A stretch of DNA of 50,458 nucleotides, taken from contig PLCF01000009.1 in the NCBI GenBank assembly GCA_003135555.1, positions 1-50,458 on the forward strand, written 5' to 3'. Of the stretch, positions 6,001-12,000 are shown in pieces. The first letter of the stretch is position 1, and every line of letters begins with the position of its first letter. A program made the position numbers. The DNA comes from Vulcanimicrobiota bacterium. Lineage in GTDB: Bacteria > Vulcanimicrobiota > Vulcanimicrobiia > Vulcanimicrobiales > Vulcanimicrobiaceae.

Positions 6001-9000
6001 AGACGCGCGCGCCCTTGAGGCCGCGCGGCTCCTTGACGATCTGCACCAGCACGTCGTCGCCGCGGCTCACCTTCTCGGTGATCGTGTAGCCGCTACGGCC
6101 TTGGGTGACCTCGACGTCGCCGATGTTCAGCGGCGTCTTGTTGATGTCGTCGACGTACAGAAATGCATTGCGGCCCAAGCCGATGTCGCAGAAGCTCGCA
6201 CCCATCCCGGGCAGGACGTTGACGACCTTCCCTTTGTAGATCGAGCCGATGACGCGCTCTTCGCGCTCGACGTAGACTTCGGCAAGCCGGCTGTCCTCGA
6301 GGATCGCGACGCGGTTTTCCCACGGATCGCTCGAGATCAGGATGTCGGTAGGCAATGGAGTAACTGGCCTCTCTCGGACGTCGGCGGCCGTCGTCCGCGC
6401 GCACATCGCGACAACTGTCACCCTGACGTGGCCACGTGCGCGTGGACCTGTCGAGGGTAAGCGTCATCGAGCGGGCGCCGCGGGCGGATGCTCTCGTCTC
6501 TCTCGTTTAGTATCGTGAATCTTTAATGGCTGTGAAATCTTGCAGGACGCACCCGGACGATCCAACGCGTTCGCCTGCCGGCCCGCGCAATCGCCCCTCG
6601 GATGCTGTCTTGAAGCTTGGCTTCCGGGGGTTGCCAGGATGGTCCTGGTCTGAAGGCCCCAGGCTTGGCCGGGCCGCAGCCGGGCTCGCAACAGCTTAGC
6701 AATACGAGCGAGACCTTGCTGCGCCCGATCGAACGGGGCCGTGCGCGCCTCGCGCCTAGGCGCGGCGGGCGGCGGCGTCGCCGAAGACGAGCCGGTCTTT
6801 CTGCAACACGATGTTGATCAGGATGCCGACCGCGATGTAGTCCGTCATCAGCGCGCTGCCGCCGTAGGACATGAACGGCAGCGGGATCCCGGTGATCGGC
6901 ATGATCCCGATGGTCATCCCGACGTTGACGATGATGTGAAAGGCGAGCATGGCGACGAGCCCGACCGCCAGCAGCACGCCGAAGCGGTCCTTCGCCGCGA
7001 GCACCGACCGCATCGCGGCGGCGATGGTGACGGTGTAGAGCGCCAGCAGCACGATCGCTCCCGCGAACCCGAACTCTTCCCCGACCGCCGTGAAGATGAA
7101 ATCGCGTGAGTTCTCCGGGACGAACGCGAGCTGCGTCTGCGTCCCGCGAAACAGCCCTTTGCCGAACCACTCGCCGCTGCCGACGGCGATCTTGGACTGG
7201 TTGAGGTTGTATCCGACGCCTTGCGGGTCGAGCTTGGGGTCGAGGAAGACCAGCAGACGCGCGCGCTGGAACGGCTTGAGGATGTGCTCGCTGGCCAGAA
7301 CCCAGGCGGCGGCGCTGACGACCCCGCCGATGTAGAGGCCGAAGTCCAGCAGGTTGGGTAGCCCGAAGTACAACTCGGCGGTGAGGATCGCGCCGATCAC
7401 CAGCGTCGTTCCGAGGTCCGGCTGTTTGAGGATCAGGACCGCGGGGATGGCCGTCGCGGCCAGCGGCAACCAGAGCTCTTGGACGCGGCGGTACGTGCCG
7501 CGGCACAGCAACGCGGCGATCGAGATCGCGAGCACGACCTTGGCCGGTTCCGAGGGTTGGAATTGGAACGGCCCGACCGCGATCCAGCGCACCGCACCCT
7601 GCGCCCCGTGCCCCTTGAAGGTGATGTAGATCAGCAAGCCCAGCGTGACGAGGTAGAGCGGGAGCGCCCAACGCCGCCACACGCGGTAGTCGACGAACGC
7701 GGTTCCCAGCATCATCGCGATCCCGACCACGCCGTAGACGAGTTGCTTGCGCCACTCGTCGGCCGCATACGGAGCGTGCAAGGTTGCGGACCGAATGAAC
7801 ACGATGCCGAGCATCGTGATGACGATCGGCGCGATGGCGAGCGGCCAGTTGAACCGGGTGTACCAGGGACGTTCCATGCGTTACCAGACCAAGCCGGCCG
7901 GGTGAGGGGGACTCGGCGCATCTTCGTCACCGTCCCGGAGAGCGCCCGCGCCCGCCGCAACCGAACGCGAGCGGATCTTCGCGCACGACTCGCGCGCGTA
8001 TACGCCCGGGCCGTACGCGAACGGAGAGGGCCTCCTCGCCGCGTTCGACCGGCACTATCTGACGACGATGCGCTAGCTCAGGCCGGCGAGAGCCCCGCGG
8101 TGGCCGGCGCGGAGGGGTCGGCTTGACGACGGCGCTTGCGCTTCGCGCGCCCGGGCGCACGCGGCACGCCGTTCGCCGGCGCGTCCGCGGCCGGTTGCGG
8201 CGCGGTCCCAGCCGGTTTGCGCGGCGTCGTGCGCCGCGGCATCGGGCGCGCGCGCATCGCCAGGATGGGCACGTTTGCGAGCATCGCGACGCGCTTCTCC
8301 TGCTGCTCGAAGGTCACGTCACAGTTCGCCGCGTCGACGTCGACGTAGCGTGAGATCACCTCGATGAGATCGTGCTTGAGCGCCTCGACGACGTCGGGCG
8401 CCAGCGAGAGATGATCGGAGAGCAGGACGAGGCGGAGGCGTTCCTTCGCCGTCGCGCTCGACGACGGCTTGCCGAAGAATCGCGCTAGGAACTCAAACAC
8501 TAGGAGCACTCCGTGCGACGACGTGCGGATTGGCCGAAGGCCAAACGCGAGGTGTCCGCCGTAGGCGGACCCACTATTTGTGGCTCCCGAACAGCTTTTC
8601 GATGAACGACCGCTCGCGCGGAATCGCCGGCGGTTCGCTCAGCGCGCCGGTAATCCGTTGTGCGATGCGGCGATACGCCGCGCCGACGGGCGAGGCCGGA
8701 TCGAGCGCCACCGGCTCGCCGCGGTTGGTCGATACGATCACGTCGGGGGCATCTTCGATCACGCCCAGCAGCGGCAGGCGCAGGATGCTGTTGACGTCCT
8801 CGACCGAAAGCATCTTGCCCTTGCGCACCATCGCCGGCCGCAGCCGGTTCACGATCAACTGCACGCTGCGCTCGTCGCCCAACAGGCCGACGACGCGGTC
8901 GGCGTCTCGCACCGCCGCGACCTCCGGGGTGCAGACGATGATCGCCTCGTCCGCGCCGGCGATCGCGTTGGCAAAGCCCTTCTCGATCCCGGCCGGACAG

Positions 9001-12000
9001 TCGATGAGCACGAAGTCGAAGCGGTCGCGCAAGGCGCCGATCAGCTCGCGAAATGCGTTCGTGTCGACGTCGTCCTTTTCGCGCGTCTGCGCGGCGGCGA
9101 GCAGCCGCAGCGACGGCACCCGCTTGTCGGTCACCAGCGCCTCGTCGAGCGTCGCCTGACCTTCGAGCACGTCGAGCACGTGATGCCGCACCCGCGCTTC
9201 GAGGCCCATCACGATGTCGAGATTGCGCAGCCCGACGTCGGCGTCGACCAGCACGACCGATGCACCGCCGGCGGCGAGCGCCGCGCCGGTGTTCGCGGTC
9301 GTGGTCGTCTTACCGACCCCGCCTTTTCCGCTGGTCACCACGATCGCACGACCGCGGCGACGGGGGATCGAGCTGGTCGCCGGCGCTTCGGGCGCCATCA
9401 TCTCTTGCATCAACCGGCCTTCCGGAAAAGTCGCCCGAAGAAGCCGGGCGTGCTGAGCTGGGTGAACGGAACCAGGTCGCCTTCGAGCCGGCGCGCGATC
9501 TTGTCGTAGATGATCCCCAGCCGGGACTCGACCTGCAGCCCGATCGGCTCGCCCTTGTTGGTCGTGTCGATCACCTCTTCGTCGTCGGGGACGATCCCGA
9601 GCAGTTCGGCCGAGAGGATATCGGTGACGTCGTCGACCGAAAGCATATCGCCGCTGCGCACCATCTCGGGCCGGATCCGGTTGATGATCAGCCGCAGCGG
9701 GAGGCTGCGCTCGTGCAGCTTGCCGATCACGCGGTCGGCGTCGCGGATCGCGCTGACCTCGGGCGTGGTGACCACGATCGCCTCGCTCGCTCCGGCGATC
9801 GCGTTGCGAAAGCCGTGCTCGATCCCGGCCGGGCAATCGATGAGGACGTAGTCGCACATCTCGCCGAGCTGTTCGATGACCTGCGCGAATTGCAGCTCGC
9901 CGATCGCGGTCTTGTCGCGCGTCTGCGCGGCCGGAAGGATCGATAGGTTCTCGATGCGCTTGTCCTTGATGAGCGCCTGGCGCAGCTGACAGCGCCCCTC
10001 GACGACCTCGACGATGTCGAACACGATGCGCTTCTCGACGCCCAGCACGAGATCGAGGTTGCGCAGCCCGATGTCCGCATCGACGAGGATGACGCGGTGC
10101 CCACGCTTGGCCAGCACAGCGCCAAGGTTGGCCGTCGTCGTGGTCTTTCCAACGCCGCCCTTGCCCGAAGTGATCACGATCCGCCGTGCGCTCATGCGTG
10201 TTGTTGCTCCCGGCGGAGGTCCGCCTCGGCGAAGGGGACGACGACGATGCGGTCGCCGACGATCGAGGCGTGCTCGGGACCGCGCGGCTTGTCGCCGGCG
10301 TCGCCGCTGGCGATCGCCGTCGCGATGCGTAGCTGCGTCGCCGCCAGCTCGAGTGCGATCACCCGGGCCGCGCGATCGCCCTGGGCGCCGGCGTGCGCCA
10401 CGCCACGCAGCGCCCCGAACACGACGATGTCGCCCGACGCGACGAGCTCGGCGCCGGGGTTGACGTCGCCGATGACGACGAGGTTGCCGAGGTTGTGCAG
10501 CGCCTGGCCCCCCCTCAGTGTGCCGCGGTGGTAGAGCGTCGAGATGCCGACCGGGAGCGCGCGCGCGGCGGCGGTCTGCGGCAGGGTCACCCCGGCCGAG
10601 GCGACGGCTGCGGCGGGCGCGTACTTGCGACGGCGCACCATGTCCTCGCGGGCGCCCGCAAAATCCGCCACCAGCGAGCGCGCGTCGTCGGAGAGCCGGA
10701 TCTCGCGATCGCGGCGCTGCCGGGGGAGCGGCGCGACCTCCGGTGCGGTCGTCGAGGGCACGCCGAGGTACGCCAGGTCCAGCTCGGCGACCGCGCCGGC
10801 GATCGCATCGACGCCGCTGACGCCGTCGAGGGTGATCCCGTACTCGGCCAACAGGTCGCGAAAGGCCGCGATCTCGTGTGCGGGCGGCTCGAGGATACCG
10901 AGGTTGGCAACCGCCCGGCTCCCACGGTAGAACTCGCCCCGGGCTTCGAACTGCGCGCGCAACTCTTCAACCGCGGCTGCTAAGGCGCGGTCGACGGCGA
11001 TCTCGAGGCTGCGGCCGCGCCCGCGAACGGTGCTCAACGGCGTCGCTCCTTGACCATGATCGCCCGCGGTTCCCAAGGGCCGGGACTCGCCCCTGCGCGT
11101 TCCACACGGAATGCACGGGAAACTTCGGTTGTCCACACACAATCCTCAGATTTTTACGTTAGTAGTGGAGAGCTACGGACCCCCGTCGAACCATAGGGGT
11201 CCGGCTCAGACCGGTCGACCGCCATCCGAGGATAGCCCATGCCGTTCCGCCGCATCGTCGTCATCGCCCTCAGTATCGCGATGATGAGTGCCAGCATCCC
11301 GTCACCCGTCTTGGCCACGTCGACCTCGACCGAAGTTCAGATCGGTAAGGAGTACGACAAGCAGATCACCGACTCGACGGTGGTAGTGACCGACCCGCTG
11401 CTCAACCAGTGGGTCAACGACATCTCCACCAAGCTGTGGGCTCAGACGGCGCGCAAAGACGTCCCGTACTCGATCAAGATCCTCGACGTCGCGGACATCA
11501 ACGCGTTCTCGACGATGGGCGGCTACGTCTACATCAACGAGGGCACGCTGGACTTCGTCCAGAGCGACGACGAGCTGGCCAGCATCATCGGCCACGAGAC
11601 CGGGCACATCGAACGGCGCCATGCGGTCACCGCGCAGAACAAGGCCTCGATCCTCAACGTGATCTTCGGCGTCGCGTCGCTGTTCTTTCCGCTGGTCTAC
11701 CGCTTCGGTCAGCTCGCGCAAGCCGGTACACTGGCGCGCATCGCCCGCGACGACGAAAACGAAGCCGACAAGTACGGCCTCATGCTGATGACGCGCGCCG
11801 GCTACGATCCCGATGCGATGCCTTCGTTCATGGCGCACCTGGGCGCGGTCGAGTCAACGAATCGCGACCTCATCTCGAAGTATCTCGCCGACCATCCGGA
11901 CAACAAGAAGCGGCTGGCGAACCTCAACGGGGATCCGGAGCTCAACCCGAACCTGCGCACCGACGACCAACGCGTCGCGCAGGCGACCCACGATTTCGAC

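Follow-up and report, generated by a model that had tools for sequence, protein, structure and literature searches.

We describe a bacterial min operon that encodes two diverged MinD ATPases in the order minC-minD-minD'-minE. It lies on contig PLCF01000009.1 of a Vulcanimicrobiota bacterium (the window, a stretch of 50,458 nucleotides). We found no published report of a bacterial min operon with two MinDs in the literature searched and, as far as these searches show, it is the first to be described. The reading that we tentatively prefer, at a little under even chances, is that MinD and MinD' mostly pair with each other into an ATP sandwich with two intact ATP sites and two unlike outer faces.

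Operon structure

The survey's finding of a minC-minD-minD'-minE operon holds up, with four abutting minus-strand genes (Table 1) whose families are confirmed by profile scores. Both MinDs lie above the NCBIfam cut-off for the bacterial type (TIGR01968, 212.9 bits), in line with the claim that two full-length copies are present, and the genome itself contains no further MinD above this cut-off. Their identity, given earlier as about 57%, was reproduced exactly by BLASTP (136/239). The cut-off for MinE (TIGR01215) is 49.3 bits, and a profile search gave MinC a MinC_C match of 96.5 bits.

Table 1. Features of the min operon and of its downstream neighbour in the window
Feature	Coordinates	Strand	Description
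minC	11037-10192	minus	281 aa from TTG 11037; longest ORF up to 11142
minD, upstream copy	10195-9410	minus	261 aa, P0002; TIGR01968 369.7 bits
MinD C-terminal tail STPGFFGRLFRKAG	9413-9457	minus	putative membrane-targeting helix; aligns with the E. coli tail KKGFLKRLFGG
minD stop/minD' start overlap TGATG	9408-9412	minus	TGA and ATG have one base in common
minD', downstream copy	9410-8574	minus	278 aa, P0001; TIGR01968 340.6 bits; candidate start
MinD' N-terminal extension	9360-9410	minus	17 residues; acidic, Pro/Ala-rich, basic patch before strand 1
MinD' C-terminal tail RERSFIEKLFGSHK	8577-8618	minus	putative membrane-targeting helix; aligns with the E. coli tail
minE	8509-8078	minus	143 aa (GTG 8509) or 140 aa (GTG 8500); TIGR01215 68.4 bits
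rodA	7877-6756	minus	downstream of minE; TIGR02210 374.8 bits

The minC start is preceded at 7 nt by AAGGAG, and the minC stop overlaps the minD start (ATGA). The overlap of the minD stop with the minD' start suggests translational coupling of these two genes. Across the class, the candidate minD' start is found between -23 and +30 nt from the minD stop in 53 of 56 loci. GTG 8500 is the more likely of the two minE starts, because the MFEF start of the homologues matches there. MinE ends in a Pro/Ala-rich tail of about 60 aa, with a poly-Arg/Lys cluster at its end. In most relatives, rodA also follows minE.

Distribution and origin

The pair had been presented as a hallmark of the order. It is present there, but another order of the class also has it, and it is a class trait that is not confined to one order. 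At least two MinD matches were found in 238 of the 243 class genomes of our Eremiobacterota sample (10 of the 243 are unpublished); one genome (G272) has a single match and four have none. Among 57 genomes from the other classes of the phylum, 35 have one match, 22 have none and 0/57 have two or more. The class is made up of soil and peat bacteria. All relatives compared (41/41) likewise have at least two matches.

The order minD-minD' is kept in 32/32 class loci and was met again in 24 further ones; the outgroup loci have a single minD (19/19). In all 32 loci minC stands upstream of the pair, partly truncated by a contig end in three of them, and minE stands downstream in 31; the remaining locus is interrupted there by a contig end. 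The class loci show no additional partner gene alongside minD'. A second minD within 4 kb was found in 0/75 min loci from other phyla.

In a maximum-likelihood tree of MinDs (64 rows), the MinD clade is sister to the MinD' clade (SH-aLRT 97.9), and the two together are sister to the single-copy MinDs of the phylum (support 86.8). A single tandem duplication of minD fits this tree. An AU test does not reject the rival topology, which joins MinD to the single copies without MinD' (p = 0.315). Across the whole class, the MinD clade mirrors the MinD' clade. MinD' has the longer stem (0.41 versus 0.21 for MinD) and evolves faster within its crown (0.65 versus 0.51), and MinD is the copy closer to the phylum's single-copy MinD. 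Taken with the tally above, the tree supports the earlier claim of one old duplication that was fixed before the class diversified. On this scenario, minD would have been duplicated in tandem inside a minC-minD-minE-rodA operon at the root of Eremiobacteria, a class of the phylum Eremiobacterota/Vulcanimicrobiota, with the pair retained since.

Conserved residues, tails and the N-terminal extension

The residues K11, K16, D38, D40, R44, D120, E126, R151, D152, D154, R182, N222 and G224 (E. coli numbering, used throughout for MinD positions) are invariant in 32 MinD, 33 MinD' and 19 single-copy sequences. Both copies have the nucleotide-binding features expected of a bacterial-type MinD, namely the deviant Walker A motif with the signature lysine K11 and K16, switch I (D38, D40, R44), switch II (D120-E126) and D152. 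The Walker A lysines, previously described as intact, are indeed present in both (K12/K17 in MinD and K29/K34 in MinD', counted along each protein). A degenerate nucleotide site was found in neither copy, as all nucleotide-binding and catalytic residues are kept. The dN/dS values within the genus (0.14 for MinD and 0.22 for MinD') indicate that both copies are under purifying selection.

The description of both C-termini as amphipathic tails stands on motif likeness. Both share the pattern F-x-x-(R/K)-L-F with the membrane tail of E. coli MinD, and by this likeness both are likely membrane-targeting helices, but the hydrophobic moments of the two tails are indistinguishable from those of internal windows. 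In the present genome the tail of MinD' is less basic (SFIEKLFGSHK versus GFFGRLFRKAG in MinD). The 17-residue N-terminal extension was also recovered, with the core of MinD' beginning 17 residues later than that of MinD. Among the class loci listed, the MinD' copies have an extension whose sequence varies. The Walker A motif is preceded by 8-11 residues in MinD and the single-copy MinDs, and by 23 to 184 residues from the candidate start of MinD' (median 29, class loci).

Divergence between the copies

Derived residues are K54, K159, S190 and D219 in MinD, and V41, H59, L61, K192 and P215 in MinD'. Some of these are fixed, namely H59, V41 and L61 in 33/33 MinD', and K54 and D219 in 32/32 MinD. 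MinD' is variable at many positions where MinD and the single copies are conserved (66-72, 101, 130, 134, 212-216 and 234-235). Such relaxation at the surface also fits a copy that may have left its ancestral partners. The I/V that MinD' has in place of L48 does not count as a loss, V being the common residue there in other phyla (70/75).

Position 159 lies in helix 7, where S148, D154 and I159 contact both the RSGQ motif of MinC and the MinE helix, according to the review PMC6803595. Both MinD and MinD' still have S148 and D154. At 159, MinD' retains the ancestral L (33/33, and 24/24 further), as do the single copies (18 L, 1 I) and the MinDs of other phyla (70 L and 1 I of 75). MinD has K in 49/49 sequences from two of the class families (f1 and f2) and M in 7/7 from the third (f3). 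The MinD-binding motif of MinC is here RGGQ rather than RSGQ (TLRGGQAL). RGGQ occurs in 47 of the 50 loci of f1 and f2, the other three being truncated or outside the search pattern, and RSGQ occurs in 8/8 loci of f3 and 17/19 outgroup loci. Residue 159 of MinD and the MinC motif changed in the same lineages, with MinD' staying at the ancestral leucine. This covariation is a single evolutionary event on one branch of the tree, and it is mildly suggestive of a mixed pair.

We also predicted the complex of MinD, MinD', two ATP and two Mg. The result is an ATP sandwich with an ipSAE of 0.87, against 0.00 for the best of three controls; 116 of 157 solved complexes attain that mark, as do 2 of 215 mismatched pairs. 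Runs share at least 98% of contacts, and the partner pLDDT is at least 88. This pass was expected, because MinD homodimers have already been solved (3Q9L, 4V03 and 6RIQ). The prediction is a measure of likeness to these homodimers that would be passed by any two MinDs, and it is blind to the difference between hetero- and homodimers.

In the predicted interface, the two copies agree in their majority residue at 31 of 39 columns and differ at eight, so there is no visible block to cross-pairing. At the predicted rim (190/192/215/219) MinD has S/T, D, E and D. MinD' has K/R, K, P and V/I in two families and K/R, T, K/R and V/I in the third, and the single copies have R/K, Q, E and a variable residue. 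The acidic rim of MinD and the basic rim of MinD', with f3 holding the charge at another position, are mildly suggestive of a mixed pair. These positions may instead belong to the MinE/MinC groove and not to the contact between subunits.

Discussion

In the mixed dimer that we tentatively favour, two complete, membrane-binding ATPases that dimerize with ATP would be made together from one tightly coupled message. Each MinC/MinE site draws on helix 7 from one subunit and on the switch-I helix from its partner, and a mixed dimer would therefore present two different sites. One would be built on helix 7 of MinD, with K or M at residue 159, which would have changed in step with the shift from RSGQ to RGGQ in MinC. 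The other would be built on helix 7 of MinD', with the ancestral L159. One-sided binding of MinE would suffice to set off both ATPases and free the dimer from the membrane; a single MinE on one side does activate both MinD subunits in E. coli (Park 2012, as summarized in PMC10691731), and asymmetric MinC/MinD heterodimers complement the minicell phenotype (Park 2015, as summarized in PMC6803595). The data establish the anatomy, age and distribution of the genes, their intact motifs and the purifying selection on them; we infer the co-assembly, the asymmetry of the two sites and the assignment of partners to them. A stricter version, which we consider clearly improbable, is an obligate asymmetric dimer in which MinC reads the helix-7 site of MinD (K159 with RGGQ) and MinE that of MinD' (L159). 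The intact ATP sites of both copies speak against an obligate heterodimer, whereas many obligate heterodimers derived from homodimers lose one.

Both copies keep every requirement for a homodimer, which counts against a mixed dimer and favours an alternative that we regard as rather unlikely. On this account MinD would be the division-site ATPase that works with MinC and MinE, and MinD' would form a separate homodimer with another membrane task, such as another cargo or a role in long filaments. The longer stem and faster crown of MinD', its variability where MinD and the single copies are conserved and an N-terminal extension found in MinD' alone would all suit such a division of labour. There are precedents too: the MinD paralogues of Haloferax have distinct, non-division roles, as summarized in the literature, and several ParA/MinD ATPases can coexist with separate cargos, according to the relevant part of PMC10241942. 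Against two separate homodimers stands the position of minD' between minD and minE, tightly coupled in nearly all class loci and with no additional partner gene. Given the similar interface columns, proteins made together on one membrane would be expected to cross-pair, with no barrier visible. It is also MinD' and not MinD that holds the ancestral leucine of the MinC/MinE contact, which speaks for continued contact between MinD' and a Min partner.

It is improbable, in our view, that MinD' is a modulator that enters some dimers or caps MinC-MinD copolymers, and so tunes the ATPase rate, the membrane dwell time or the wavelength of oscillation. This could be useful where cells range from short rods to long filaments, and the description of Vulcanimicrobium alpinum gives rods or filaments of 1.5-92 micrometres (PMC9758169, in the part relevant here). 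The less basic tail of MinD' would fit, and mixed dimers with one altered MinC/MinE site work in E. coli (Park 2015, in the account of PMC6803595; Park 2012, in that of PMC10691731). The tight translational coupling, however, suggests roughly equal amounts of the two proteins and not a minor regulator. Least convincing, and very improbable, is that two interchangeable MinDs are kept for higher expression. Both do score as genuine MinDs above the cut-off of the family, but they are only 57% identical, they carry different class-wide fixed residues (V41, H59 and L61 versus K54 and D219), and their clades mirror each other over the whole class. Interchangeable copies would have been lost or homogenized, and not kept together in nearly every class genome.

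The operon has much in common with bacterial MinCDE systems that employ one MinD homodimer (E. coli minB and minCD(E)-rodA of Bacillota). The genes, their order, the catalytic residues and, position 159 of MinD aside, the partner-contact residues are the same, as are the N-terminal membrane helix and contact helix of MinE and the RSGQ-type motif of MinC; the order minC-minD-minE-rodA is also common in Bacillota. The differences are the presence of two diverged MinDs instead of one, the second with an N-terminal extension, the K/M at helix-7 contact 159 of MinD where others have L/I, and RGGQ in the MinC of two of three families. Unlike halves that form a nucleotide sandwich are found among duplicated P-loop ATPases of the same superfamily, in the two-halves pseudo-dimer of ArsA and in Nbp35-Cfd1. 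ArsA is a fusion with non-equivalent sites, whereas MinD and MinD' are encoded by separate genes, neither site is degenerate and the hetero-pairing is putative.

To our knowledge, the MinD paralogue genes of Haloferax are dispersed, without minC and minE. Haloferax volcanii likewise has several MinD-family ATPases in one cell (MinD1-4), which published summaries place in the archaeal MinD subfamily, without a tie to division-site selection; here both copies are of the bacterial type and lie inside a minCDE operon. A close parallel to the proposed mixed dimer is the set of asymmetric MinD heterodimers engineered in E. coli, in which the two MinC/MinE sites differ (Park, Wu, Lovell, Lutkenhaus 2012; Park, Du, Lutkenhaus 2015). 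In these, one-sided MinE activates both subunits and one-sided MinC still gives Min function, as recounted in PMC10691731 and PMC6803595. They combine laboratory mutants with the wild type, whereas the two genes described here are natural and fixed across a class, with a putative pairing.

The Min system is a textbook case of protein self-organization, and all models take MinD to be a symmetric homodimer whose two MinC/MinE sites are equal. Whether the cycle is driven by MinE and MinC bound on one side or on both has so far been studied solely with engineered mixed dimers. Two unlike MinDs, kept in one operon since the class diversified, would provide a natural system with two distinguishable sites. 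If MinC and MinE indeed read different sites, they would stop competing for one, and one MinE would be able to set off both ATPases; such a dimer would be the natural counterpart of the engineered one-sided dimers, and a textbook pattern-forming system would have been rewired. The class has one cultured member, V. alpinum, which grows as short rods to 92-micrometre filaments, and the proteins can be cloned and are suited to supported bilayers. Even if the two copies act separately, the MinD/MinD' pair would be a marker trait for the class.

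Operon organization

The survey's finding of two adjacent minD genes alongside minC and minE (57% identity between the two products, 136 of 239 positions) was right in every checkable detail. On the window's minus strand the genes minC, minD (the upstream copy), minD′ (the downstream copy) and minE abut one another. Both MinD and MinD′ score above the 212.9-bit cut-off of TIGR01968, the NCBIfam model for MinD, and no third MinD above this cut-off is found in the genome. MinC, MinE and RodA are also named by NCBIfam, and Pfam agrees.

Features of the min operon and of neighbouring genes in the window; start codons of the operon genes are predicted
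Feature	Position	Strand	Remarks
S41 (C-terminal processing) peptidase, first	5-1300	+	432 aa; PDZ domain
S41 (C-terminal processing) peptidase, second	1300-2727	+	476 aa; PDZ domain; starts at end of first gene
RNase E/G family protein	3359-6421	-	~1021 aa by longest ORF; downstream of rodA; catalytic domain only residues 145-414
rodA	7877-6756	-	downstream of minE
MinE C-terminal tail	8078-8280	-	~60 aa
minE	8509 (more likely 8500) to 8078	-	named by NCBIfam
minD′	9410-8574	-	278 aa; TIGR01968 340.6 bits
minD	10195-9410	-	261 aa; TIGR01968 369.7 bits
minC	11037-10192	-	TTG start seven bases after AAGGAG; stop overlaps minD start (ATGA)
M48 peptidase protein	11239-13251	+	671 aa; N-terminal domain residues 54-230, long C-terminal part; divergent from minC
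RDD-family protein, SpoIIM-like membrane protein, DUF58/VWA - MoxR AAA - DUF4350 cluster	14330-19548		

The minD stop and the minD′ ATG have one base in common (TGATG). The candidate start of minD′ lies between -23 and +30 nt from the minD stop in 53 of 56 loci of the class Eremiobacteria, to which this genome belongs, and 12 of those 53 overlap the stop; judged by this spacing, translation of minD and minD′ is probably coupled. MinD′ always carries an N-terminal extension, with a candidate start at least 23 residues (median 29) ahead of the Walker A serine, compared with 8-11 residues in MinD and in the single-copy MinDs of the phylum's other classes. This extension is acidic and rich in Pro and Ala, its sequence is not conserved, and there is a basic patch at its end.

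The Pro/Ala-rich tail of MinE ends in an Arg/Lys run (here KRKRRR) and is also seen in the fetched loci L017-L055. We regard it as an extra element because the family model, of 81 positions, ends near residue 82; membrane or DNA binding are possible roles. The tail and its basic cluster are phylum-wide. They occur in class members and single-copy outgroup alike, poly-Arg cluster included, which rules out the tail as a correlate of the minD duplication. The two S41 peptidase genes are another adjacent paralogue pair in the window.

Distribution of the minD pair

Two or more MinD matches, always adjacent, are present in 41 of 41 relatives (this genome included). In a survey of 301 genomes of the phylum Eremiobacterota/Vulcanimicrobiota with a completeness of 85% or more, at least two matches were found in 238 of the 243 class genomes, although such tallies count matches rather than genes and the relatives are not independent. 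By family the counts are 214 of 219, 4 of 4 and 20 of 20 for the three families that form the class (f1, f2 and f3, respectively). Ten unpublished class genomes are inside the tallies (G036, G188, G221, G238, G239, G244, G252, G254, G267 and G276); when these are removed the count is 228 of 233. The exceptions in the class, G207, G218, G305, G315 and G272, comprise four genomes (87-94% complete) with no MinD match and one with a single match. The phylum's other classes have exactly one match in 35 of 57 genomes, none in 22 and two in 0.

The order minC-minD-minD′-minE, mostly then followed by rodA, holds in all 32 fetched class loci, and the pair was found again in 24 further class loci. All 19 loci from other classes have a single minD in the order minC-minD-minE, bar one that is cut by a contig end before minE. 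Among 75 min loci from other phyla (mostly Bacillota, with some Chloroflexota, Pseudomonadota, Melainabacteria and others) none has a second minD within 4 kb. The minD pair is a class trait that is rare elsewhere. The survey had called it a hallmark of the order; the pair is indeed real and widely kept, but this scope is too narrow, as the genome tallies and the gene order of the loci place it across three families of the class. In one Eremiobacteria metagenome-assembled genome (L072:4800-5400) the minD′ frame shifts twice within ~60 nt and the adjoining minD is intact; assembly indels seem a likelier cause than a real pseudogene.

Origin of the two copies

With MinD′ as query, 1.84 billion representative proteins yielded nothing above ~50-56% identity outside its own cluster. 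The nearest proteins there are ordinary MinDs of Bacillota, cyanobacterial and plastid type, and no donor lineage for MinD′ is visible in that search.

Our main tree was built with IQ-TREE (LG+F+G4, fast search) from 64 rows, after 16 representatives with long branches or an odd composition had been set aside. In this tree MinD forms one clade and MinD′ another; the two are sisters (SH-aLRT 97.9), and the single-copy MinDs of the phylum form the sister group of the pair (86.8). The stem of MinD′ is twice as long as that of MinD (0.41 versus 0.21), and the MinD′ crown exceeds that of MinD in depth by about a quarter. In two larger trees, described below, the branching order of the three families is identical inside both clades. 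The trees fit a single tandem duplication that predates the diversification of the class, after which the downstream copy changed faster.

The survey had likewise derived the pair from one old duplication. The 64-row tree favours this, but the sister relation depends on the model and on the omission of the 16 representatives, since MinD and MinD′ are not joined by FastTree on 173 rows, and an 80-row quick tree under a mixture model joins MinD, MinD′ and the single copies in one group (SH-aLRT 88) without resolving their order. An AU test does not reject the alternative topology, with MinD beside the single copies and MinD′ outside (p = 0.315). A fast search constrained only to join MinD and MinD′ became stuck in a poor optimum (logL -18895.7, worse than the -18879.5 of a stricter constraint); its AU p of 0.008 is meaningless, because its logL falls below that of the stricter constraint and the free tree already has the clade.

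Conservation and divergence

Both copies are, by their kept nucleotide-binding and catalytic residues, evidently working MinDs. In an alignment of 32 MinD, 33 MinD′ and 19 single-copy sequences, K11, K16, T17, D38, D40, R44, D120-E126, R151, D152, D154, R182, N222 and G224 (E. coli MinD numbering) are invariant in each copy type. The dN/dS ratio within the genus is lower for MinD (0.14) than for MinD′ (0.22). An amphipathic C-terminal tail had been claimed for both: the tails do align with the membrane-targeting helix of E. coli MinD, but their hydrophobic moment is no different from that of other windows of the proteins.

Each copy has unusual residues of its own when judged against 104 representatives and the 75 loci from other phyla. 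For MinD the fixed ones are K54, a non-basic residue at 190, D219, and K or M at 159; the residues listed at 219 for the representatives and for the loci of other phyla include no D. For MinD′ they are V41, a basic residue at 57, H59 (33 of 33 sequences; H is rare there elsewhere), L61, K/R or T/S at 192, a residue other than E at 215, and a relaxed P212-D214. Many surface positions kept by MinD and the single copies are variable in MinD′.

Position 159 matters because the review PMC6803595, from which we took the contact residues, names three helix-7 residues, S148, D154 and I159, as touching both the RSGQ motif of MinC and the contact helix of MinE. Position 159 is L or I in 71 of the 75 loci from other phyla and in all 19 single copies, and L in 33 of 33 MinD′ and again in 24 of 24 further MinD′. 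In MinD it is K in 49 of 49 sequences of f1 and f2, and M in 7 of 7 of f3. The MinC motif reads RGGQ in 47 of 50 f1 and f2 loci (the other three are truncated or missed by the pattern), RSGQ in 8 of 8 f3 loci, and in the single-copy outgroup RSGQ in 17 of 19, with one RAGQ and one not found. This change falls exactly on a known contact. It carries little statistical weight as it is one evolutionary event, and the 24 further class loci, of which 20 were fetched for this comparison and four came from the wider scan of min loci, yielded no independent case. The pattern suggests MinD as the copy whose helix 7 is read by MinC, with helix 7 of MinD′ still in its ancestral state. A 'complementary degeneration' of the two sites via L48 was ruled out: in other phyla V or I is usual at position 48.

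Predicted MinD-MinD′ complex

We predicted the complex of MinD, MinD′, two ATP and two Mg, with a separate alignment for each protein. It scored 0.87, against 0.00 for the best of three controls, and passed a mark that 116 of 157 solved complexes attain, as do 2 of 215 mismatched pairs. Contacts agree between runs by at least 98%, and the partner pLDDT is at least 88. The model supports MinD-MinD′ binding and does not show it; since MinD homodimers have been solved, the pass reflects likeness to these and cannot separate a heterodimer from a homodimer.

Helix-7 residues 148, 151 and 152 of one predicted chain contact residues 44-49 of the other. This confirms that both subunits contribute to each MinC/MinE site, so that a mixed dimer has two unlike sites. 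Of 39 interface columns, 31 show the same majority residue in the two copies, compared with 153 of 257 columns overall, and in the model nothing visible prevents cross-pairing. Rim columns 187, 192, 215 and 219 are four of the eight interface columns that differ; 190 is not itself part of the interface. At 190/192/215/219 MinD has S/T, D, E and D, and the ancestor-like single copies have R/K, Q, E and a variable residue. MinD′ has K/R, K, P and V/I in f1 and f2, and K/R, T, K/R and V/I in f3, which retains the basic charge at a different position. These opposite rim charges could favour a mixed dimer; they could equally reflect different grooves of the two copies towards MinE and MinC.

Discussion

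Full-text literature searches, which are noisy because 'mind' is a common word, turned up no description of two MinDs in a bacterial min operon. The main text of the description of V. alpinum, a cultured member of the class, has 0 occurrences of minD, minC, FtsZ or 'cell division'. Multiple MinDs are described in archaea, several per organism as here, but with functions other than those of Min.

What might the two proteins do? Plain redundancy is very improbable, and a role for MinD′ as a sub-stoichiometric modulator is quite unlikely. Separate homodimers with divided roles are somewhat unlikely: archaeal and other ParA/MinD paralogues behave in this way, and the faster, more relaxed evolution of MinD′ would suit it, but the operon position and tight coupling of minD′, as well as the ancestral L159 that it keeps, speak against it.

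The survey had proposed an obligate MinD/MinD′ heterodimer. The reading that we favour, at a little under an even chance, is that the two mainly pair with each other. Two proteins made together, with interfaces that are alike, would form a MinD-MinD′ sandwich. One-sided dimers can function in E. coli, where binding of one MinE to a single side activates the two subunits (Park 2012, cited in PMC10691731), and asymmetric MinC/MinD dimers complement the minicell phenotype (Park 2015, cited in PMC6803595). That MinC would use the helix-7 site of MinD and MinE that of MinD′ is a doubtful, decidedly unlikely assignment. Mixed pairing would give the class a Min ATPase in which both ATP sites are intact and the two partner sites differ.
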